In this document: one piece after another, positions 7,559-34,200 of the stretch
How the letters are laid out: each line of letters begins with the position of its first letter
How positions within the stretch are numbered: position 1 is the first letter of the stretch
Source: a virus
Taxonomy: Duplodnaviria > Caudoviricetes
Length of the DNA: 64,000 nt
IMG/VR virus record: IMGVR_UViG_3300031867_000003
Coordinates: 64,001-128,000 of that record
Strand: one strand, 5' to 3'
Program-made: the position numbers and the translations under genes
Notes under the pieces: generated by a model
Databases searched by the model: none
Told to the model about the DNA's origin: nothing
Seen by the model: only the letters and a program-made list of their open reading frames with translations

Positions 7559-7564
7559 GGACTA

Positions 7565-7870
7565 ACTGTTAAGTTATTAAAAACATAGAAATATGTAGTC
7601 AAACATAATTAAAAGTGGACACGATTAGCCTTTTAATTATGGATTTAACAGTAGGTTTCGAGCCTAAGTGAGTGCTGGATAATGAAAGTTACTCTGCATG
7701 ATGAACTACGATAGAGAGATAAGGCAAAAACACACCTTCGGATGCACTTTCAGTCCGTTGCTCTGTGAGTGCCAACCAAGAAACATCGCTAATGTCCTGC
7801 GGTGAAAACAGGGAAACACATGTTCTTCTTTCCGTCATTGGCACGAAGGAAAATTCTCCGAAAGGAAGGT
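7565..7870 (+). ncRNA. omegaRNA/HEARO-like scaffold of IscB
   Basis: ~300-nt structured non-coding region directly upstream of iscB (stems ACTGTTAAGTT/GATTTAACAGT and CATAATTAAAAG/CTTTTAATTATG; CTACG...CACCTTCGGATG...CAGTCCG...CTCTG; CATTG...GAAGG). Confidence 0.75.
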
Positions 7871-9151
7871 GTCAGAAATGACAAATTATTGTTTTGTGTT
7901 GGATGCCGATGGAAAACCATTAAGTCCAACAAAAGAAGTAAAAGGTTGGTATATGATACGAAAAGGGAAGGCCAGCCTTGTATCAAAGTACCCAATGGTA
8001 ATACAACTGAATCGTAAGATACCTGATAATGAAATCTGTAAAGATGAAATTCGCTGCGGAATTGATGATGGTGGTCTTCATGTAGGGATTGCCCTAGTTC
8101 AAAAATGCCGGACTAAAAATAAGGTATTATTTAAAGGTACTGTAGAACAGCGCAACGATGTAAAACATCTTATGGACGTACGTAGAGGTTACCGTAGGTA
8201 TCATAGGTATCACAAAAGGCACCGCAAAGCAAGATATAATAATCGTAAATCTTCAAAACGAAAAGACAGAATTGCACCGAGTATACTGCAAAAACGCCAG
8301 GCGATTATACGAGTAATGCATTACTTAAATAAGTGGATTAATATAACTTCGTATTGGCTTGAAGATGTCGCTATAGACATACGTGCATTAACTGACGGAT
8401 ATAAACCTTATAGGTGGAAGTATCAGGAATCTAATCGTTTAGATGAAAATATACGAAAAGCAGTGATCTTGAGAGATGGCTGTAAATGTATGGAATGCGG
8501 TAGAACTGATACAAGATTAGAAGTACATCATATAAAGCCTAAAAGGCTTAATGGTTCTAATACAATGGACAATCTGATTACACTTTGTGAAGGATGCCAT
8601 CGGATAACTGAGGGGAAAGAAGAACAGTATATGCAACACTATTTTAACAGACTTAGTTCTTCAGATAATAAGTATCTCAATTACGCAAGCCATGTAATGA
8701 TAGGTAAAATGTGGTTGCAAGGACAGCTATCTGAACTTGGGGATCTTCATCTTACAACGGGCGGCGATACTGCGAATAAACGCATAGATTGGAATATAGA
8801 GAAGTCCCATTCTAATGATGCCATCTGCATTGTTGATTTAGAACCTGATACTACTGATATTAAAGAGTGGATTATTAAACCTATACGCAGACAAAGTAAA
8901 GCTAAGACTGACAATGTATTAGGAATTAAGCATAAAGATTTTGTAGAGTACACTTTCAAAAATGGTGAAACCCATAGAGGGTACGTAACAGCGTTATATC
9001 CAAAACAAAATGCTTTAAATTTCCAGAGTCCTACAAAACATTGCAAGAAAGTAAATGCAAGAAAATGTAGATTGCTATGGAAATTTTCGAAAATTTATTG
9101 GTTAGATAGTGTGTCTTAAACACATTTTTGTATATTTAAACACTATTAACA
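7567..9151 (+). mobile_element. Non-autonomous IscB element (omegaRNA + iscB) with imperfect inverted ends
   Basis: TGTTAA...TTAACA ends with 20/30 identity as inverted repeats; no transposase inside. Confidence 0.6.
7878..9119 (+). CDS. iscB: RNA-guided endonuclease IscB
   Basis: PLSP (PLMP-like) N-terminus, RuvC-I GIDDG, Arg-rich bridge RRGYRRYHR, RuvC-II LEDV, HNH (LEVHH...[10 protein letters not shown]), RuvC-III SHSNDA. Confidence 0.93.
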
Positions 9152-9173
9152 ATATTTTTATAAGGAGGAATTT

Positions 9174-10088: not shown

Positions 10089-10325
10089 ATGATTAAACTA
10101 CAAATTCAATTTGACAAAGTTAATAAATTATGTGCTATCTGCGAAGCCGTACCATTTGATGTAGATATTGTTTGTGGAAAGTACGTTGTTGACGGCACCA
10201 GTGCAATGGGGGTTGCTTCTTTAATTGGCAGAACGGTCACTGTTAATCCAGTGGCGATTGATGACCAACGTCAAGTGTTTGACTTCTATGAAAAATTAAC
10301 TTCGATCGGAGCATATCAAGTATGA
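10089..10325 (+). CDS. HPr-like protein
   Basis: 'DVDIVCGKYVVDGTSAMGVASL' resembles the HPr Ser46 region; no N-terminal His. Confidence 0.65.
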   Translation: MIKLQIQFDKVNKLCAICEAVPFDVDIVCGKYVVDGTSAMGVASLIGRTVTVNPVAIDDQRQVFDFYEKLTSIGAYQV

Positions 10326-12398
10326 ATAATTTTATAGAATTGGAGCGTAAAACCCACTACCCTTGGGTAGTGGGATATAAGCGATCTCTCAACAGTATAT
10401 TTTACCAAAACAATGTGTTTCAGTAAAATGTATGCCATAATATACATACAGGAGAAATCCGAGTCTTTAGAAAGGAGTAAGACTATATGTATCTATCTGT
10501 AAAGCAACAGGTTAAGCATCTATCAAAGGAAGATTACAAAACTATTAGAGAACTCTGTCATATAGCTAAGAACCTCACAAATGAGGCTATCTATAATGTA
10601 AGACAGTATTACTTTACGGGGGGTGAGTACCTTAACTATAAGAAAAACTATGCTCTTCTCAAAAATAGCCCTAACTACAAGGCGCTAAATTCCAACATGG
10701 CACAACAGATACTTAAAGAAGTCGATGGCAGTTTTAAATCATTCTTCGGGCTTCTTAAACTTGCGAAGTAGGGCAAATATGCTTTTAAGGATTGTAAGTT
10801 ACCACATTATCTTCCGGAAGACGGATATACCACGCTTGTAATCGGGTTTGTAAGACTAAATGGTAATAAACTGATACTTCCGTTTTCTAACAGCTTCAAG
10901 AAAACACATAAAGCTGTAGAGATAACGATACCACCTATATTGCTTGATAAAAAGGTTAAAGAGATTCGTATTATTCCTAAAGCAAAGGCAAGGTTCTTTG
11001 AGATATAGTATATCTACGAAGTAGAGATTATTCAAAGAAATCTAAACCAAAACAACGCACTTGCTCTTGACCTTGGAATAAATAATCTTATAACCGCTGT
11101 ATCAAGTACAGGGAAATCGTTCATCATTGATGGAAGAAGGCTTAAATCTATAAACCAGTGGTTTAACAAAGAAAATGCAAGGCTTCAGTCTATCAAGGAT
11201 AAACAAGGTTTTGGTAAAAAGACAACCAATCGTCAAAAAGCTATTGCAAGAGACAGAAATAACAAAGTGAACGATTATATGAACAAAGCAGCACGTAAGA
11301 TCATAGATTACTGTGTTGCTAACGATATAGGTACGCTTGTTGTCGGCTACAATGAAACATTTCAATGTGATACCAATATGGGTAAACGAAATAATCAGAC
11401 CTTTGTAAACATCCCTTATGCTCAGTTACGGGATAAATTAGCGTATCTTTGCGAGTTAAACAGCATCACTTTTGTAAAACAAGAAGAATCTTATACATCC
11501 AAAGCAAGTTTTTGGGATAAGGATACTATTCCTATCTATAATGCTGATAACCCGAAAGAATATCAGTTTAGCGGTAAGAGAATGTGCAGAGGATTGTATA
11601 AAACAGCAAGTGGTAGTTCATTTAATGCAGATGTAAATGGGGCATTAAACATTATGCGTAAAAGTAGCGTTGTGGATATGAATATCCTATACGGTAGAGG
11701 CGAAGTGGACACGCCTATAAGAATAAGGATTGCCTGACTTGTCAGGTGGAAACTTAAATATCACACTTCTTAAATAGAGTTGCAAGACTCTTAGAAGCCA
11801 TGTACCTTTAGGTGTGTGGTAGTTCACTAAATCGATTATGGCGGGATGGGCATTTCTCGCATCTGATAACAAATTAGTGGGATCTATTCTTTTTTCAATC
11901 GGGCTGCTGTTGGTTTGCACTATGGGATACAACCTGTATACCGGCAAAATCTGTAAAGCATTTACAATCGGTGGTCCAAAATTTATTTTGTTTCCGTGGA
12001 TGCTACTGGGCAATTTTCTCGGCACATTTATTGTGGCAATGTTAACCAGAGTAGGGCGTCCACTTCTGATAGATAAGGCAACGGCTGTTTGCTCGGCAAA
12101 ATTATCTGAGGGACTTGCGGTAATTCCGCTGGCAATCATGTGTAATGTGATGATTTATTACGCGGTTACTAACTTTAGATATAATCCTCATCAACTCGGC
12201 AAATATCTGGGGATTATTCTCAGCGTAACAATATTTGTTTACTGCGGTTTTGAGCATTGTGTGGCTAATGCCTACTACTTTTTTGTTGCCGGTTTCTCCA
12301 TCATGTACATACCATTCTTGCTACTGAATGTTCTCGGCAATACAATTGGGGGAATCGTTATATATAGATTAGACACTTTATCAAAGATTAATTATTAA
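10322..12398 (+). CDS. Formate/nitrite transporter family protein, split at codon 5 by the TnpB element (main part 11838-12398)
   Basis: Motifs LFSIGL, LYTGK, GNFLG, CN, FEHCVAN, GNTIGG; multi-pass membrane protein. Confidence 0.85.
10336..11827 (+). mobile_element. IS200/IS605-superfamily TnpB-only element inserted after TTTAT
   Basis: Left hairpin CCCACTACC-CTTG-GGTAGTGGG; right end hairpin then TAGTTCAC; removal rejoins ATG AAT AAT TTT AT|T AAA TCG ATT ATG in frame. Confidence 0.85.
10487..11737 (+). CDS. tnpB: TnpB RNA-guided nuclease, 416 aa with two in-frame TAG (Gln)
   Basis: One frame from 10487 to TGA 11735, interrupted only by TAG at 10769 (LAK*GKY) and 11006 (FEI*YIY); RuvC motifs LALDLG, QEESYTSK, NADVNGALN. 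Confidence 0.85.
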
Positions 12399-17543: not shown

Positions 17544-18746
17544 TTGTGTCTGCTTGCATCTGATGCTACTATAGATACATCATATATCCGTTCTCAGATT
17601 GATGATATGAACCGGAGAAAGAAGTATCTAAACAACCATAAGTATGCAATCACGCAAAATAAAGATGGGAAGTGGTACACATATTTGCCCGATCCCGTTA
17701 AGGGCAGAAAATTGTATAAAAGAAGTTCGAGAAAAGAATTGGAAGATATCATAGTAGAATGCTATGAAAAGTTGGAGTCACTAGGCTCAACGTTCGAAGA
17801 AGTGTATTTCATGTGGAGAGAATATAAAGATAAGATGGTGTCCGATAATACGGCAGTCAGATATGATACTGACTACGCCAGATGTCTCGAGGGTACTGAT
17901 TTTGTAAAGATGCCGGTGTCAGTAATTACTGAAGATGACATATCTGTATTTATAAAACAGCGGATCGAGTCCCTGAAGTTGCCGAAGAAAGCAGCCAAAA
18001 TGTTATTCGGATACATCCACAACACTTTGTTATTCGCTTGCCGCCACAAGCTGATTGACGAAGATGTGATGAGGTTCATGAAACCCGGCGAATTTTATGA
18101 GTACTGTGTGGCATCAAAAAGATCGCAAAAATCCCAGACTATTAGCGATGAGGATAATGCTAAACTTCAGGCATTGTTGAGGGATGACATACAAAACAAT
18201 CCGACTTACATTCCTCCATATGCCGTAGTACTATCTTCGCTGACCGGAATGAGAGTCGGCGAACTGGCTGCATTAACTTGGGACTGCGTATTCGAAGATC
18301 GTTTATTAATTAACAAATCAGAGAAGTATAATCGCAAGACCAAGACCTACTCAATTGAAGGTACTAAGAATGGTAAATCCAGGGTATTTCCAATGACCAA
18401 AGAAATTAAAGAACTTCTTTATAACCTCAAAAAGATCGAAATTGCCAATGGATTCTTAACTGAATACGTATTTAGCGGAGAATCCGGACGAATTCATACA
18501 AATGTAATATGTAGTTGTATTAAAAACAAATGCCGAACTTTAGGTATTACAGAGCGAGGAATTCACGCATACCGTAAAACACTGAACTCCAAAATGAGAT
18601 GTAGCGGTGTCTCGGCAACGGTTGCGGCGAGTTTGCTCGGTCACTCACCAGAAGTCAACGAGCAATACTACACGTATGATGTTGCAGATTTCTCGACCAA
18701 AACAAGTATCATTTCCGAATTAAATAAGAAGGTAATGGGGGAATAA
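17544..18746 (+). CDS. int: Tyrosine integrase (start uncertain)
   Basis: TGMRVGEL, TKN, HAYRK, LLGHS...YY catalytic motifs; adjacent to attP. Confidence 0.93.
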   Translation: MCLLASDATIDTSYIRSQIDDMNRRKKYLNNHKYAITQNKDGKWYTYLPDPVKGRKLYKRSSRKELEDIIVECYEKLESLGSTFEEVYFMWREYKDKMVSDNTAVRYDTDYARCLEGTDFVKMPVSVITEDDISVFIKQRIESLKLPKKAAKMLFGYIHNTLLFACRHKLIDEDVMRFMKPGEFYEYCVASKRSQKSQTISDEDNAKLQALLRDDIQNNPTYIPPYAVVLSSLTGMRVGELAALTWDCVFEDRLLINKSEKYNRKTKTYSIEGTKNGKSRVFPMTKEIKELLYNLKKIEIANGFLTEYVFSGESGRIHTNVICSCIKNKCRTLGITERGIHAYRKTLNSKMRCSGVSATVAASLLGHSPEVNEQYYTYDVADFSTKTSIISELNKKVMGE

Positions 18747-20607: not shown

Positions 20608-22212
20608 TCAACTAACTCTAGCAATATACTACGCAGCTACAAAACCATAAATATGTGAATTAACACATATGTATAGCCAATCGGAGCCATCGAGGGCGGT
20701 GACTTTATCACAAACCTCGACCTCATATCCTTTTTCTAACTGAGGCCATGACACAATATTGGCATAAGAATACCCCGGACCCGACCTCACATTAAGATTA
20801 TTATCAATTGATTTGCCGACGTACTGAACCGTTTTGTTGACAGTGTATGTTCCGTCGGCTCGTTGTTTGTTGACTGTTGGAGTTGTTGCGGCTGAAATTA
20901 CAGGTTTAGCGGTAGTAGGTTTAGTAGTGTTGGTTTGTTTGGCGTCTTTTTTTTCTTTAATTAGCTAATCAATCTTTTTCATTGTTTTATTGCCGACGAT
21001 TCCGTCAACTTCAAGGCCATATTTTTTCTGGAACTCAATAACAGCATTATAAGTATGTTCGCCAAATTCACCGTCTTCATCAAGGTTGACATTCATCAGC
21101 TAATTAAGTTTTTTCTATAGATTTTTAACCGCACTGCCGACATCTCCGTACTGGATATCAGAAGAGGACGCCGACACTGTAGTTGTAGCAGTGCCGTTTC
21201 CTACATATCTAAGTACCACATTCCATGGATAATTCCGATAATCGCGGATTAAGATCTCTCGTCCGGTTTGATCGCCCGGTTGTCCGCCGGTTGCCTTCCC
21301 AAGTTCGTTTACACTGGCTTCGACCTCTTTGCCACTACCGCAATACATAGCGACGTGATGTACATGGTTAAGTAATATATCTCCGCGCTACATACCGTTC
21401 CCCGTATTGAGGTTAACAGTGCTAGTAACATCTTTGAAGCCATACTTCAAAAATACTTCATACATATTCCCCGTATACATGGCGCCACCTTTGGATTTAA
21501 CCGGAACGCCGGCTTGTTCCCATGCGGTAATCGTTAAACTGGAACAATCATAATCTCCGCGCTCATTCCAGCGGTATGCCTGATCGTAGCCGTGAGATGC
21601 ATCCCTAGCGACTTTCTCCATAAACGAGATTGCCGATTCAATAATCGCCACTACATTAGTAGTAGCAGCAGTAGTAGTAGTGGTTATCGGTTTTTCGGTT
21701 GAACTCGGTTTACTGATATAGCCAAACGCATCAGTATACCCATTGGCACCGTCGGGAAAACAAAAGAATGTCCATGACGAACCATAGACATTCTTTACCT
21801 TGGTAATATCTTTTTTATACATACTCCGATTTGTAGGAGTAAAAGGTACTCCATTATTGCTTGCGCTTGCGATATCGGATAAGCAATCATACTCATCCAC
21901 GTAGGACGGGAGACTACGATTGCCGTTGAGAATAACGTCCTTCACCGCATTAATTACAGATTGCGGAGCATAATTACCGTTGATATATGGTTTATTAAAC
22001 GATTCAGTCCCATACCAACCGGACTTCACCGTACAATCAAATGGGTTGCTATATTTTTTAGTCTGATACCGTTCGTAATAATTCAACATATGCGATGCAC
22101 ATGCCCGTACACCGGCATCATTGGAACCCTACTCTCGGTAGCAAATATTTGCCAAACCGCGAATTTGGGTTTCTGTAAGGTTATATGATTTTCCTTTATA
22201 TATTTCTGACAT
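20608..22212 (-). CDS. Modular endolysin (putative hydrolase + NlpC/P60 peptidase + PG-binding + SH3), 6 TAG=Gln
   Basis: 'CYRE*GS', 'GYDQ...DYDCSS', '[16 protein letters not shown]', 'VKNL*KKLN...DGEFG...[14 protein letters not shown]', 'LNVRSGPG'; single frame to TGA. Confidence 0.88.
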
Positions 22213-22229
22213 AAGTTTCACCTACCTTA

Positions 22230-27695: not shown

Positions 27696-27876
27696 CTTCC
27701 TCCTTTGTTTGGTCTAAATCTCCCATAATGGTATTAGTGAACATGTTTAATTCATCTGCCTGTTTTGCAACAAGCTATTTTAATTCTTCATTTTCAGCCC
27801 TTAGATTTAACATCATTACACGTTCCTTCGGCGACATTGTTCTGGGCTGATAAAAAATCTTTCCGTTGCTACTCAT
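27682..27876 (-). CDS. Small coiled-coil protein, 1 TAG=Gln
   Basis: MSSNGKIFYQPRTMSPKERV...EELK*LVAKQ; ends TAA. Confidence 0.5.
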
Positions 27877-28906
27877 AATATTTCATCCTTTCATCATACC
27901 AATGTTGTAACTTTGTTATTAGCTAATGATTATTTCCCTTGCTCATAAATGACAATCTCGCGGTTTTACTATCCTCTATACATTGTTTCGTCCGTTCGCC
28001 TTTGGCGTACATTTTCATTAGCTTTTTCAGAATATATTTAAACTCCCTAACCGATTGACTTCGCGGGAACTATAACACCTTGCCCGTGTCAGTCACTCTC
28101 CACTAAAATCCTATGAACTCAATTCCTTTGGCTAGAGTAGTAATATGTGTCTTGTCTTCATGAGGAGTTAAACATAATTTATCCAATTCTTTTGTGATCT
28201 CATCCAGACAATACTTTAAATATTCTTTATCCTCATGAATCAGAACCATGTCATCCATAACACGAATATAATCTTTGATATGAAGTTTCTCTTTAATAAA
28301 ATGATCGAGACCGTCAAGCAGACTTATACCGGCAATTTGTACCATTTGACTTCCCGGATTATATCCGGTATCACCTTCATACTATGCGTCGAGAATTTGC
28401 GCCACAATTTCATACGCATCCGGTTCTAATTTTTTACGAAACATTTCCTTTACAATATTATGCTTCATTGACGGATAATATTTCTTTATATCAATTTGCA
28501 AAATATACCCGTCGGTTCCATGGTTAATGTAAAAGCGTCGAAGTTGCTTGCGGAATAAATCCAAGCAATAATCTATTCCTTTACCTATTTGACATGCGCC
28601 ATTCTCTTTAATAAACGATTTTGACATTGTCGGATATAATATCTTGTCATTAAGTGTTCTCTGCCAGACTCTGTCTCGATATGATATTGCCAAGATATCT
28701 CTTGGTTTTGGTTTTGTTACCTAGAAAGAAACAGGAGCTTGAGACTTATATTCACCACTTTTCAGTTCATTGGAAAGCTATAGGATTTCTTCAAATCCGT
28801 GGAGTGAAAATCTCGCAACAGAGTCCTTCCATATGACTCCTTGTTGCGCTTTTAAATGACTTTCATATAAAGCCTCAAAACTCATGACTTCTTCGATTGC
28901 ATTCAT
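27794..28906 (-). CDS. DGR reverse transcriptase (370 aa in code 15; 7 TAG)
   Basis: AGGAGG RBS; 'KPRDI...YRDRVWQR', 'ACQIGKG', 'LQIDIKKYYPS', 'GYNPGSQMVQ', 'YIRVMDD', 'IEFIGF'. Confidence 0.93.
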
Positions 28907-29081
28907 AAATACAACCTCCTTTTTCTTGCTGTAATAGTGCGGCCGGTTCACCGACAACACATCAGCAAAATATTGTTTAGTATGGGAGTACCGCACCCAC
29001 ACAGGGTTATAAACTCCTTGCAACCGGGATTCTTCATTCTGCGACATATACGCATGTATTTTTATAAAATCCCGTCTCCAA

Positions 29082-29184
29082 TCGACAGCGAGGCGATTAG
29101 CGTTGTTCGGGTTATTGTTGTTCACATTACCAGACGAGTTCACATTACCCTCGTTATTGTTCCCGAGCCATGCCGAGCGAACCC
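29082..29184 (-). repeat. DGR template repeat (TR)
   Basis: 103-nt AAC/AAT-rich copy of the VR; all 17 differences from VR are at TR adenines. Confidence 0.97.
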
Positions 29185-29220
29185 GCCCCAGCACATTAAT
29201 AGCTTATAACCCAAATATAA

Positions 29221-29737: not shown

Positions 29738-31237
29738 TTATATAATTGCGCAAGCGACAGCGAGGCGAATAGCGTAGTACGGGTAATTGCCGTTCACATA
29801 ACCAGACGAGTACACAAAACCCTCGAAAACGCTCCCGAGCCAAGCCGAGCGAACCCAATATGTTTGTGCAGAAGTAGTAGCATTTACCTAATATTTTTTT
29901 AACACCTCATATGTTCCGCTTGCCACGGTCTCTTCACTTTCAAGCAGTTCTTTATAATACTGGAACGGAGTCCCGTCCACCGTTGATATATTAGTAGCAT
30001 TCTTCAAATTCATTTCATGATGTGACGGCATCCAGAATTTATCATATGTATAATCAGTTCCACCGCCCATATAATTAGGCTCTTTTGTGGTAATCTTAAT
30101 CGGATGAATAGCGTTAACCAGATCACTGGATATATAGCTCTCAAATCCTAATTTATTATCATATCCGCTCGGCATTACATCACATTCGTGTTGTGCTTGC
30201 CACCATCCAGTTCCGGAATTATTTAGGTATTGCCTAGCACAACTATACTTCCAACTATTTGTTCCATAGCGAATAGCGTTAACCTAGTTCCATAATGTTA
30301 CAAACACCTTGTCATAATCTTCGTATGGAATAGTATCACCGACACTCAGATTAAGCGCGGTATATACGGTACCTTCTGCCGTATATCCATAGTAATAATG
30401 ACCGGCAGACGCTGTTTGCTCAGTAGCTTCAGTTTGTTCCGGCGCGTCAAATATCACTGTATCATGGTTTAAATATTCCATTATGAGAATTGGCACATTA
30501 TCGTAAGTTGTGCCGTCCTAAAGTTCCACTGTCTAAAAATCTGCCACAATCCACGGATTGGCATATTCAGTAGTACCAATTGTATACGTGTCGTTAATTA
30601 CGTCACCTACATTAAAATATTCATTTGCCCTACCGGTTTTTGCCACTTGTATCATCTTTTCCCAGGTGTCGGGAATAATATCCGCAACCGTTACCGGCTA
30701 AATAGCAGTCAGAACATACGGCTCTGTCCCGGTATATGTAAGAGTTACGTTTTGTGAACCCAGCGTTGACAGAATTGCAGGAGTAGCTGTATATTCGTTA
30801 TCCGATAAAATTCGTGTTTCACCGGTACTCCAAATCAGGGTTACTACCATACCGGTTTTATCAAATGTATTTCCGACTTCATATTCGGTTTGCGTTGGCG
30901 GAGTAGTCACAGTGATTGCGGTAGGGTAGGAGATATCCGGCAACTCAGCCACGCCATTATTTACCACGCTTACTCCACCAATTGTTACGTCCGAAATAGT
31001 TCCGTCCTATATAGCCTATATAGCATCACCCGTAGCCTTAGCATCGGCAGCTTGCCCGGTAGTACTCAGTGTAGCGTCAATATCTGGTGCTAAATTATTA
31101 ATTAACGTTTTAAGAACGGCACCGGTTACTTTCCGGCTGCCGCTCGTTGTTTCTATCATAAACACATCCGCATCATTAATTGTCGAGGCGGCTGTGAGAT
31201 TAGTTATCTTTTTTACTCCGTTTACCTTAATAGACAA
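29738..31237 (-). CDS. DGR target protein: Ig-like domain + C-terminal DUF6273/CLec-like domain (499 aa, several TAG)
   Basis: Single frame; 'ITVTTPPTQTEYEVGNTFDKTGMVV' (Big-like); ends 'YWVRSAW...RLAVACAII'. Confidence 0.9.
29754..29856 (-). repeat. DGR variable repeat (VR)
   Basis: Colinear with TR; encodes the last ~34 aa of the target. Confidence 0.97.
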
Positions 31238-34200
31238 TAAAATCATCCTCCTCTCCAATTGCGTATCCGTCGTCGGTTACGATAATAAAATTGTCATTTG
31301 ATGTGATGGGTGATGAGGGTACATGTTGATATGCGTCATCATTGTGTTTCCAGTAGGTTATTTCTACATCGGAGTTTGAATTGCTCCAGATGGTATTTGC
31401 GCCACGTAGGGTGGTGAGAGTTTGGGGGTCGATGGGGTAGACCGTCGGCGAATATACCTCACGAACAAGTTGAATATTATTATCAATAAACCATTGTCTT
31501 GCTGTATCTGCTGTTAAGGGTGTTTCAGAATGAATAAGAGTATGAAATCTATTAGATTGATTGAGTAATACATAATCTAATTCGTATCCAATCTCTAATG
31601 TACTAGACTTCTTATATCCGTATGATAATTTTGAACACATACTATTATTTGAAGATCCATATCCTTTTCCACCAACTCCACCAAATCCAACTTCATAGTA
31701 TCCATTACCTAAATCATTAAAAAGGTTTGTTTTGTTTAAATAAACATACTCTTTCCATGTTTCCACAATCTCCCCATTAATCAAATCCACATATCCGCCA
31801 TAGATTGTTTTAGGAAATGGAATAGTGATAAATGTACCGCTTGTATCATAAGGTGTAGGAGATGAACCATATTCAAGCTGTAATTCAATGCCCTTAGTTG
31901 TATTATGATATTCACATCTCCAATAATATGCATCTTCTTTTAATGTGAATGACCTATAAAATCGTCCTGGAGTGTATTGAGATGTCCATGTCATAGTCCA
32001 ATAATCAATTTGTGTTTTATCTTTACGATAATATCTTATTTTATTAGCATAGTTTGCTGAACCTACAACCACTGTTCCTTTTGGTATATGACAATATGCA
32101 AAACCATCTTCATCTGGATTTTCAGCATCTAATAAATTTCTATCTACTCTTGCCATAGTTATAGAATCCCATCCCTCAATGGGACAAATGTTGGAGTAAG
32201 GTTCATAACTAGTCGCGGAACTACCAGATTCTAGCTGATAGTTATATAAAGCAAGAGAAGTAGTAGAACCATTCTTTATTACAAATAATCTAATATCTTT
32301 TTCTTCTTCAATAGTAAAAGTTAATAAATTTGAATTTGCACTACTAACCATACCAGTATCATCATTTTTAGCAATTACATCCGCCGTTGTATTAACAGAA
32401 AATGTATATGTTCCAGCTTTTAAATGAATAGATCCATTTGGGGTTGATGAAGACACGGTGCCACCAAAAACAATAGCTCCATTATTTTCTTCGAAATTAT
32501 TTTGATCCAACAAATTCTTCCCACTTCCCCCAATCCACGGCTTATCATACCCATGGAGGTCTTGCTTCGGCAAAAACCATACCTTACATTCCTTCAAATC
32601 CGCCGCCATATCCGTACCAAAGCTAATAATACTGTTTTTGGCGGTCACTGTATGCGGCGTCGCTGTAAAGATATTTTTCCTGGACTCTATTGGATCAAAC
32701 ACCCCGATGTAATCATATTCGATTTCAATGCGGTCGGCATTGCTCCAGAAGTTGTTGTCGAACATGAGGGTACTTAGGGTGGTGGGGGAGAGTTGGTGAG
32801 TAGTGTAAAAACTATCATTAATAAATGGATAGGCAATATAATGACCAGCATATTTTGTTTTAAACTCTTCCACGGTTGACACCGTACTATCATAAATATA
32901 CATTGATGTCCCTTGAAATGTACCATCAGCAGTTGCAGTAGCATTTTCTAAACAATCGCATAATATCTCATTTGAAGCTTTAACACAGTATCCTTTTCCT
33001 GATACCCAATGTCTTAATAAAAAACGATGTAACCATGGCTCACCAGCACCAGAAGATTTTTCAATACTTGAAAATTCGCTCATATCTCGTCTTTCCCAAG
33101 TTTCCACCAATTCTCCGCTCACCAAATCTACATACCCACCATACACAGTCCCAACATCCTCGGACCAATCAATATCATAGCGGTTGACCGCGGGGCCGGT
33201 GACAAATTCGCCAGTTCCAGAATTGGTGTAGAATTGACCGGAGACCGCATCATACATTCCGGCGACTTTGTCAGATTTGCGGTAACAAGGGATAAGGTTA
33301 AATGCCAGATTTTCACCGTCATATAATGCAATTGAGTAACATTTGCAACCAAACATATGAGTTGAAGCACCGTCTGCAAAAAGTTGAACAGGTTTAGTTG
33401 ATTTAATACTGTTTGTATGCGTTGCTGTATATGTTTTGCCATTAACGACCATTGTTTTCTCGTTACTATCAAGATTATAGGTTGCTTCAAAATTATATTT
33501 TGTATCTACTGTGCTACTGTAAGCGTCCGTAGTCACATTAGTTTCACTCGATTGATACTCCCTAGAGTATCCAAAAAACTTGTATTGATAGATGCCAACA
33601 ACAAAACGTCCTGTTCTAGTATCCTGATTTCCAATCAAATCGCGTTCAGATGATATAGTCTTTGTTGTGAAATCAGCCAAAATCTTTATATTCTCTGTTT
33701 GCACATAATAGTTCGTATCTATATACTGCGTCCCTGTACTCTCCAAATATTCAACCTATTGATACTCCTTCGGCAATGAAAGGTTGGTTTTATAGGGAGT
33801 ATATTCGGTAGCTTCTGAGCCACGTTCAAGTTGAAGATTATAAATTCTATTTACAGCAGTTTTTGACGCATTCCCAAAGCAATTAAGAGATAGATTAATA
33901 CAGAAATCTTCTTCTGCCGTAAATGTTGTTGTAATATGACCGCTATCGTTACTAGCCTGTGGAATAGTCTTATATGAAGCTGTCCATGCCAAAGATGGTT
34001 TTCCAATAATACATGGTCTCCAATAATAATTTCCAATACCATTTATATAATCAAATGATAACGTATACGTACCAGGTGGAAGTAAATTGTCATAAACGAA
34101 TACGCCTATATCTCGTTGACCGGAAATAATAGTTCCAGATAATTCACCACTGGCAAAAATCATATCATTTGGTTCGGTTTTAACATTAGATGGATGATGA

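Follow-up and report, generated by a model that had tools for sequence, protein, structure and literature searches.

Background

TnpB proteins are described as homing or retention nucleases of IS605-family elements (PMC10690162; PMC10691335). Among them Altae-Tran et al. 2023 (PMC10691335) distinguished a clade, RIIr-5, characterised by a Glu-to-Gly change with a compensating glutamate; in the largest clade with a rearranged RuvC-II motif glutamate is exchanged for glycine and an alternative glutamate is present, and the authors argue that such proteins are active. They also reported that the zinc finger has been lost in some large TnpB branches, hence this feature is not defining for derived TnpB clades. 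Phages that reassign stop codons form a second point of comparison. In code-15 gut phages, early and lysogeny genes keep to the standard code and late genes are recoded (Borges et al., bioRxiv 10.1101/2021.08.26.457843; Peters et al. 2022, PMC9523058). In the TGA-recoded Agate phages, Borges et al. found a group I intron endonuclease in an early gene to be preferentially recoded, and proposed that its in-frame stops delay production of the endonuclease. Here we describe a TnpB-only element of the IS200/IS605 type in a tailed phage, the tnpB gene of which contains two in-frame TAG codons. It lies in a stretch of 64,000 nucleotides (hereafter the window), corresponding to bases 64001-128000 of the 202,175-bp virus record IMGVR_UViG_3300031867_000003.

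The element is intact, and the phage reads TAG as glutamine; it is likely that the full nuclease is made only when amber suppression operates.

Two TAG codons at conserved glutamine positions of tnpB

The tnpB frame spans window 10487-11737 on the plus strand, comprises 416 codons if TAG is read as glutamine, and terminates in TGA. Exactly two stop codons lie in frame within it, both of them TAG, and there is no other damage to the gene or the element:

10769-10771, plus strand: in-frame TAG at codon 95, in a glutamine column of close homologues; CAG in the nearest relative (L002)
11006-11008, plus strand: in-frame TAG at codon 174, in a glutamine column of close homologues; CAG or CAA in nearly all DNA copies

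An original prediction, made from the letters of the window alone, had reported these two codons (at 10769 and 11006), intact gene ends and an absence of further stops or frameshifts, and analysis of the frame agrees. It had also held tnpB to be the only TAG-containing gene of the plus-strand block. This is so inside the window, where every other TAG belongs to a spurious 5' frame extension, but not across the genome, as an HNH endonuclease gene (genome 14724-15731) contains them too.

The 119 closest proteins, 85-90% identical and of 416 aa or nearly so, come, where a source is named, from Lachnospiraceae and other Clostridia of the rumen and gut. When aligned with TnpB, they have glutamine at position 95 in 113 cases and at position 174 in all 119. 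The residue contexts of the TAG-coded glutamines are LAKQGK(Y) and FEIQY / FFEIQYIYEVEIIQR, and this alignment bears out the earlier expectation that homologues hold glutamine in LAKQGKY and FEIQY. At the level of DNA, codon 174 is CAG or CAA in 98 of 99 full-length copies (19 viral, 80 bacterial), and codon 95 in 38 of the 99, most of the more distant ones encoding lysine there. CAG stands at both sites in the nearest relative and in the three closest proteins of the database for which DNA was compared, so each TAG is one C-to-T transition away from the codon of its closest kin. A blastn search of the locus against GenBank phages gave no match. By every comparison made, both TAGs of tnpB are glutamine codons; since they stand at conserved glutamines, full-length TnpB is probably made only while the phage's override of the stop codon is active.

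Evidence that TAG encodes glutamine in the phage

The record repeats its first 100 bases at position 201,498, indicating a genome of ~201.5 kb; the hosts of the phage are probably rumen or gut Firmicutes of the Lachnospiraceae type. A minus-strand block at ~84-171 kb is shattered under the standard code and resolves into long frames if TAG is a sense codon, one example being 2497 codons long with 57 TAGs. The large terminase subunit, TerL (genome 167125-168885), has 11 in-frame TAGs, eight of which coincide with columns where glutamine is the majority residue among 120 homologues; over all the TAG columns pooled, glutamine accounts for 795 of 1320 residues. On these alignments the phage reads TAG as glutamine.

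The distribution of the codon follows the blocks of genes. In the late minus block (84-171 kb), TAG constitutes 297 of 1082 glutamine-type codons (27%); in the plus block (1-83 kb), TAGs are almost confined to spurious 5' frame extensions, two of 78 long frames of the standard code (code 11) end in TAG, and none of the plus-strand genes neighbouring tnpB in the window contains one. The endolysin gene (NlpC/P60, ELLD and PG_binding_1 domains; window 20608-22221, minus strand) has six TAGs, and the tyrosine integrase gene at the end of the early block (window 17544-18746, plus strand) has none. A reverse transcriptase gene (RVT_1, seven TAGs; window 27794-29194, minus strand) adjoins one for a DUF6273/Big_3 protein (seven TAGs; window 29738-31258, minus strand), a pair that looks like a diversity-generating retroelement in the recoded code.

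No release-factor gene was found in the phage genome, which makes a tRNA the likely means of overriding TAG. In its intron mode, ARAGORN identified a tRNA(CUA) interrupted by a 231-nt insert at genome c[164685-165002], situated in a gap of the late block free of open reading frames (ORFs), 36.7 kb past the window; this intron-split gene is a candidate amber suppressor. ARAGORN's drawing of it has an A1:C72 mismatch, G73 and a long variable arm. A tRNA(GAA) at genome 11553-11952 is split by a 314-nt insert, the interruption lying in the anticodon loop in both of these tRNA-like genes, and the 3' 130 nt of the tRNA(CUA) insert are homologous to the tRNA(GAA) insert, the likeness covering the 3' half of each. 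Three weak Rfam tRNA matches (31-36 bits) with enlarged D or anticodon loops, at genome 12087-12168, 12891-12981 and 14050-14141, sit among normal tRNA-Met, tRNA-Gly and tRNA-Gln(UUG) genes, and may be odd or degenerate tRNAs.

Anatomy of the element

The following parts of the element were delimited:

10336-11827, plus strand: whole TnpB-only IS200/IS605-type element, 1492 bp, without tnpA; bounded by the limits of homology and missing as exactly this stretch from sibling phages
10353-10374, plus strand: left-end subterminal hairpin with arms CCCACTACC / GGTAGTGGG, its position conserved across copies
10401-10429, plus strand: predicted promoter-like site TTTACC-17-TAAAAT, from a consensus scan; hexamer regions conserved in the family
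10470-10477, plus strand: ribosome binding site (RBS) GAAAGGAG, conserved in the family alignment
11665-11827, plus strand: omega-RNA scaffold, from the 3' end of the tnpB ORF to the right end ...GGTAGTTCAC; 5' limit approximate

Alignment of flanks places the start of homology with bacterial and viral copies at 10329/10330 and its end at 11827 (...GGTAGTTCAC), with TTTAT conserved just 5' of the element in the copies examined. The arms of the left-end hairpin vary between copies in a compensatory manner, for example as CCCACGGTC/ACCGTGGG and CCCCTACCT/AGGTAGGGG. A conserved TATAATATACATACAGG lies 3' of the promoter-like site and before the RBS, and the left end is separated from tnpB by ~150 nt in all copies of the family. 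In the omega-RNA region synonymous sites are conserved too, and an alignment of 38 copies contains compensatory changes in 21 of 48 predicted pairs; the window copy retains all the helices, and Rfam has no family matching the region.

No match to PF01797, the Y1 transposase TnpA, was found in the phage genome, hence excision would need a host enzyme. Five bacterial genomes carrying this TnpB family have 3-7 Y1 genes each; a cognate TnpA was not found beside family members, none of the four examined being adjacent to this family. As judged from its sequence, the element is an intact, non-autonomous IS200/IS605 insertion carrying only tnpB and its omega-RNA.

A TnpB of the rearranged RuvC-II type

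Assignment to TnpB follows from NCBIfam NF040570 (guided_TnpB, 188.3 bits against a cut-off of 100), with Pfam matches to PF01385 OrfB_IS605 (102.8 bits, cut-off 30.5; 1.8e-29) and PF07282 Cas12f1-like_TNB (33.3 bits, cut-off 26.3). The residues relevant to catalysis, as aligned in 39 sequences of 32-52% identity, are:

11069-11071, plus strand: D195, RuvC-I aspartate, invariant
11345-11347, plus strand: G287, at the canonical position of the RuvC-II glutamate; invariant glycine, aligned with the E of 'EDL' in AsCas12f in a profile alignment
11486-11488, plus strand: E334, putative relocated catalytic glutamate in QEESYTS, just past the strand of residues 328-333 in the secondary structure of the model; invariant
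11630-11632, plus strand: D382, RuvC-III aspartate in NADVN, invariant

The triad D195/E334/D382 is thus unvarying across these relatives, and the suggestion that the RuvC glutamate had moved to QEESYTSK is upheld by the invariance of both Gly287 and E334. The predicted absence of a zinc finger was likewise found: no C4 motif occurs between RuvC-II and RuvC-III, residues 335-380 containing a single cysteine where the family consensus has none.

An AlphaFold model built with the 39 relatives has a mean predicted local distance difference test score (pLDDT) of 92.3 and a predicted template modelling score (pTM) of 0.82. Its best Foldseek matches are Cas12f and TnpB structures at template modelling scores (TM) of 0.6-0.76, including AsCas12f at E 6e-19; against ISDra2 TnpB (8h1j) the TM is 0.67 when normalised by the query and 0.76 when normalised by the target. 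A phmmer search of the PDB with the single TnpB protein found no match, a profile being needed to align AsCas12f. By profile, motif and model, the protein is a TnpB of the rearranged RuvC-II type.

Insertion site and sibling phages

Two sibling phages, L119 (189.8 kb) and L120 (132 kb), lack the element and have flanks 81-91% identical to those of the window in DNA. They are also TAG-recoded, as in a 614-codon frame with nine TAGs. The features at the junction in the window are:

10322-10335, plus strand: remnant of the likely original start of a formate-nitrite transporter (FNT)-like gene, ATG plus NNFI, ending in the target-adjacent motif (TAM) TTTAT (10331-10335); from the frames of the siblings
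11828-11846, plus strand: guide-supplying flank TAAATCGATTATGGCGGGA, which follows TTTAT (L120) or TTTTT (L119) directly in the siblings; includes ATG 11838
11838-12398, plus strand: FNT-like membrane protein gene (Pfam Form_Nir_trans, 1.1e-23), its first eight codons lost to the insertion

An exact search of viral contigs for the predicted empty site found none, and the sites were later recovered through the neighbouring gene. At the L120 junction TTTAT is followed directly by TAAATCAATTATGGCGGGA, with a G-to-A change at guide position 7, and at the L119 junction a variant TAM, TTTTT, is followed by TAAATCGATTATGGCGGGA. The TAM and target originally proposed, TTTAT-TAAATCGATTATGGCGGGA, therefore agree with the empty sites of the siblings to within one base in each. 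The junctions are seamless and lack a target duplication, as expected of an IS200/IS605 insertion, and the guide flank is unique within the phage genome. The single substitutions in the siblings were considered as escape mutations and set aside, as one change in 24 nt is below the expectation from the local divergence of 14-19%.

Both siblings read MSNF(F/I)KSIMAG... in one frame from an ATG overlapping the TGA of the upstream gene, and this is very probably where their FNT-like gene starts. From the counterpart of this ATG in the window, the frame now runs on into the element and is closed by a stop after 34 codons. Given the sibling start, the element lies in codon 5 of the FNT-like gene, and the gene in the window must restart at ATG 11838. 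Relative to both siblings, 21 nt (ATTGCAATCGGCATCGGCGGA, seven FNT-like codons) are missing from the window at 11846/11847; this gap starts exactly past the 19-nt guide match, at a distance of ~20 nt from the TAM, with the near-repeats GGCGGGA and GGCGGA on its two sides. Slippage may have caused a deletion here, or the gap may be a scar of repair close to where TnpB would be expected to cut.

Window 7562-9159, which holds an RRXRR-HNH gene (7869-9119), is also absent from both siblings, where a DNA ligase gene adjoins the homologue of 9160 onward. The stretch is a second insertion of a mobile nuclease, 1.2 kb upstream of the TnpB element. The best match among sibling sequences (L122/L123, G002/G001) to the TerL of the phage has 35% identity over the C-terminal 107 residues only; either the lineage is mosaic between replication and packaging modules, or the search missed a gene broken by TAGs.

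Proposed expression of the nuclease and alternative explanations

The reading that we prefer, suppressor-dependent production of TnpB, can be set out as a series of steps. The element inserted directly 3' of TTTAT, in codon 5 of the FNT-like gene within the TAG-free early block, and two CAG codons of tnpB would have mutated to TAG during its residence in the phage genome. Transcription is probably from the promoter-like site of the element itself, or reaches tnpB by read-through from the early block. If only the translation apparatus of the host is at work, ribosomes would stop at codon 95, leaving a 94-aa fragment and no nuclease; with amber suppression on, both TAGs would be decoded as glutamine and the 416-aa RNA-guided nuclease produced. 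We infer the events that follow decoding: TnpB would bind the omega-RNA, with the 3' flank as guide, and be directed to a vacant TTTAT site, which may belong to a sibling phage infecting the same cell or to a genome that has lost the element through excision by a host TnpA, and the break would be repaired from an occupied copy, as in the established homing and retention of TnpB elements. TnpB is expected to be made, to be active and to cut empty sites. Borges et al. have put forward the hypothesis that suppression is restricted to late infection, and it may hold here.

Several observations weigh against suppressor-dependent production or against any general rule behind it. The long variable arm of the tRNA(CUA) is unusual for a tRNA-Gln, and Rfam detected neither a tRNA nor a group I intron at this split gene, the suppressor call coming only from ARAGORN's intron mode. 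The RRXRR-HNH gene is free of TAG, as is a 448-aa frame at genome 43062-44408 that was counted as an early-block nuclease, and the sibling G001 has a different TnpB (L125, G001:C1:3370-4566), 37% identical, in a 478-codon frame without TAG; hence selfish nucleases do not carry TAG as a rule. In tnpB, two of the 18 glutamine codons are TAG (11%), compared with 27% in late genes and ~0 in its neighbours, a share that fits passive drift as well as adaptation. There is a single sampled copy in a recoded genome, with no sign of selection after the TAGs arose, and the synonymous divergence (dS) from the nearest relative is greater than 1, at which a short recent neutral phase would be hidden.

The explanation that survives best beside the preferred one goes a step further, and holds that the TAGs were favoured as a timing gate on an inter-phage weapon, which would keep the nuclease silent during lysogeny and the early phase of infection and let it cut co-infecting element-free relatives late, thereby spreading the element or excluding rivals. 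The original prediction had likewise inferred a nuclease silent in the host or lysogen and active late in infection, when it could cut co-infecting element-free phage genomes. We regard this as possible but doubtful. The only early-block gene other than tnpB with mid-gene TAGs is the plus-strand HNH endonuclease gene (~303-335 aa), which lies in the tRNA cluster outside the window and has TAGs at codons 15 and 184. Homologues cover this frame from end to end, and glutamine is found at these columns in 38 of 38 non-gap sequences and in 33 of 48, respectively. Both such genes are therefore mobile-type nucleases, although this enrichment argument is post hoc and concerns two genes. The TAG-free early-block nucleases and sibling TnpB described above speak against the timing gate. 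A precedent exists in the preferential recoding and proposed delay of the Agate intron endonuclease, though the timing of suppression is hypothetical even in that literature. An intron endonuclease has a known part in the competition of phages that infect the same cell (PMC11620839), and the homing or retention role given to TnpB in PMC10690162 would suit such a weapon. The TAG-free integrase makes lysogeny possible; element-free siblings with near-cognate sites occur in the same kind of samples, but both sampled empty sites carry one mismatch, in the TAM or in the seed. The TAGs may have been selected or only tolerated, two in 18 glutamine codons being close to the drift expectation, and the TAG use of tnpB fits a gene with no need of early expression that is drifting towards the usage of the phage.

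A broader form of the timing idea, in which the code switch is a selected translational lock on both selfish nucleases, TnpB and HNH, made once the split suppressor tRNA has matured, also seems unlikely. If it were true, the nucleases would appear when many genome copies are available as repair templates, sparing lysogens and early replication and driving homing into, or exclusion of, element-free siblings.

Less probable still is that tnpB is a young pseudogene in an element that is a dead passenger, its TAGs being common nonsense mutations that happened to strike CAG codons, with the complete protein neither produced nor required. The phage can do without TnpB and has no tnpA, and such decay does occur, ~3% of family copies being visibly affected: among ~180 other loci, two have TAA stops and two have frameshifts (L178, L213, L172 and L205). 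A contig of Fusobacterium perfoetens (L112) has one TAG at the conserved Gln40, an ordinary CAG-to-TAG nonsense change in a standard-code host, and forms a useful control for this alternative. However, the window copy differs from what decay would be expected to leave. Enumeration of the single-base stop-creating changes in the ten nearest relatives, allowing for transition bias, puts CAG-to-TAG at 5-15% of the possibilities, so that two of two nonsense changes being of this type has P = 0.003-0.02 under decay, or ~0.04 by the observed lesion spectrum (1 in 5). No copy with two TAGs was found among the ~180 others. Other recoded phages carrying this TnpB family were not found either: a terminase could be detected in only two of ten large viral contigs, both in the standard code, and none of 32 + 79 viral loci (overlapping sets) or 80 bacterial loci has a copy interrupted by TAG alone.

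The gene also lacks the wider signs of decay, having no TAA or TGA stop, no frameshift and no excess of amino acid changes, with element ends and omega-RNA intact. For the window copy, the median pairwise ratio of nonsynonymous to synonymous divergence (dN/dS) is 0.052 and the proportion of nonsynonymous differences (pN) 0.090, compared with 0.051 and 0.090 in 339 other pairs that are similarly divergent. A check for neutral evolution thus returned a dN/dS of ~0.05, the same as the rest of the family, although the long branch could mask a recent neutral phase. There are five private changes at conserved residues, within a family range of up to nine. In addition, TAG is a sense codon at hundreds of positions in this phage, hence ribosomes would read the TAGs of tnpB whenever late genes are translated and its mRNA is present. 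The central claim of the original prediction, that this TnpB is written in the code of the phage, is supported by TAG as glutamine in the phage, the placement of the TAGs at conserved glutamines and the lack of relaxed constraint, and tnpB is best read as a working gene in that code rather than as a pseudogene.

An artefact, be it errors of assembly or sequencing at the two TAGs or a chimeric locus joined from reads of host and phage, is very improbable. Rumen and gut metagenomes contain the TnpB family in many repeats, a situation in which assemblers can go wrong, and a 2126-bp Logan contig encoding an identical FNT-like protein starts 104 nt upstream of the gene, as would fit an assembly break at the right end of the element, but a second public contig of 201,639 bp has the same gene order and a gene call with the exact 416-aa sequence, the flanks of the element join phage sequence precisely at a TTTAT site matching the empty sites of the siblings, the copy is ~18-20% diverged in DNA from every other sampled copy and so is not a pasted host copy, and two independent C-to-T errors, both at glutamine codons, are unlikely.

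Comparison with known systems

The element and its enzyme are ordinary members of known families, and the phage is one more code-15 phage. What appears to be new is the combination, a suppressor-dependent RNA-guided transposon nuclease with natural empty sites; full-text literature searches found no paper mentioning TnpB with stop-codon recoding or code 15 in phages. Its significance would be that a bacterial transposon, once inside a phage with an alternative code, can acquire that code by drift and be maintained in it, its RNA-guided nuclease thereby becoming dependent on the phage's suppressor. The idea of the code as an expression timer would be extended from virion, lysis and intron-endonuclease genes to the TnpB/OMEGA class. 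The locus also offers an unusually complete natural test system, with nuclease, guide, TAM, empty sites (one with a TAM variant, one with a seed variant) and a candidate suppressor tRNA. Annotation under the standard code misses or splits TnpB and other genes of recoded phages.

In its enzyme and element, the locus resembles the RIIr TnpB proteins (PMC10691335): it shares hidden Markov model membership, glycine at the site of the canonical glutamate, an invariant alternative glutamate past the next strand and an NADxN RuvC-III motif, as well as a non-autonomous element with tnpB alone, a 3' omega-RNA and a TTTAT-type TAM at the left end. Unlike those proteins, it has two TAGs that are sense only in the host phage, and its whole subfamily is without the C4 zinc finger; the likeness is one of motif. 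As in TnpB homing (PMC10690162; PMC10691335), the guide comes from the 3' flank and the target is a vacant TAM-adjacent site, here seen in siblings; however, the arena would be a phage population, not a bacterial chromosome, and the phage has no tnpA.

As a genome, the phage is like the code-15 gut phages (PMC9523058) in using TAG by block, with a TAG-free integrase and recoded endolysin (six TAGs) and TerL (11 TAGs), but departs from them in its TAG-bearing exception among the early genes and in a candidate suppressor tRNA that a long intron interrupts. The closest precedent for the recoded tnpB is the recoded intron homing endonuclease of the TGA-recoded phages (Borges et al.), likewise a selfish nuclease among early genes in the standard code with reassigned stops at sense positions. 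In Agate, TGA is read as tryptophan in a protein-guided intron endonuclease and the enrichment is clade-wide, whereas here TAG is read as glutamine in an RNA-guided transposon nuclease of a single genome.

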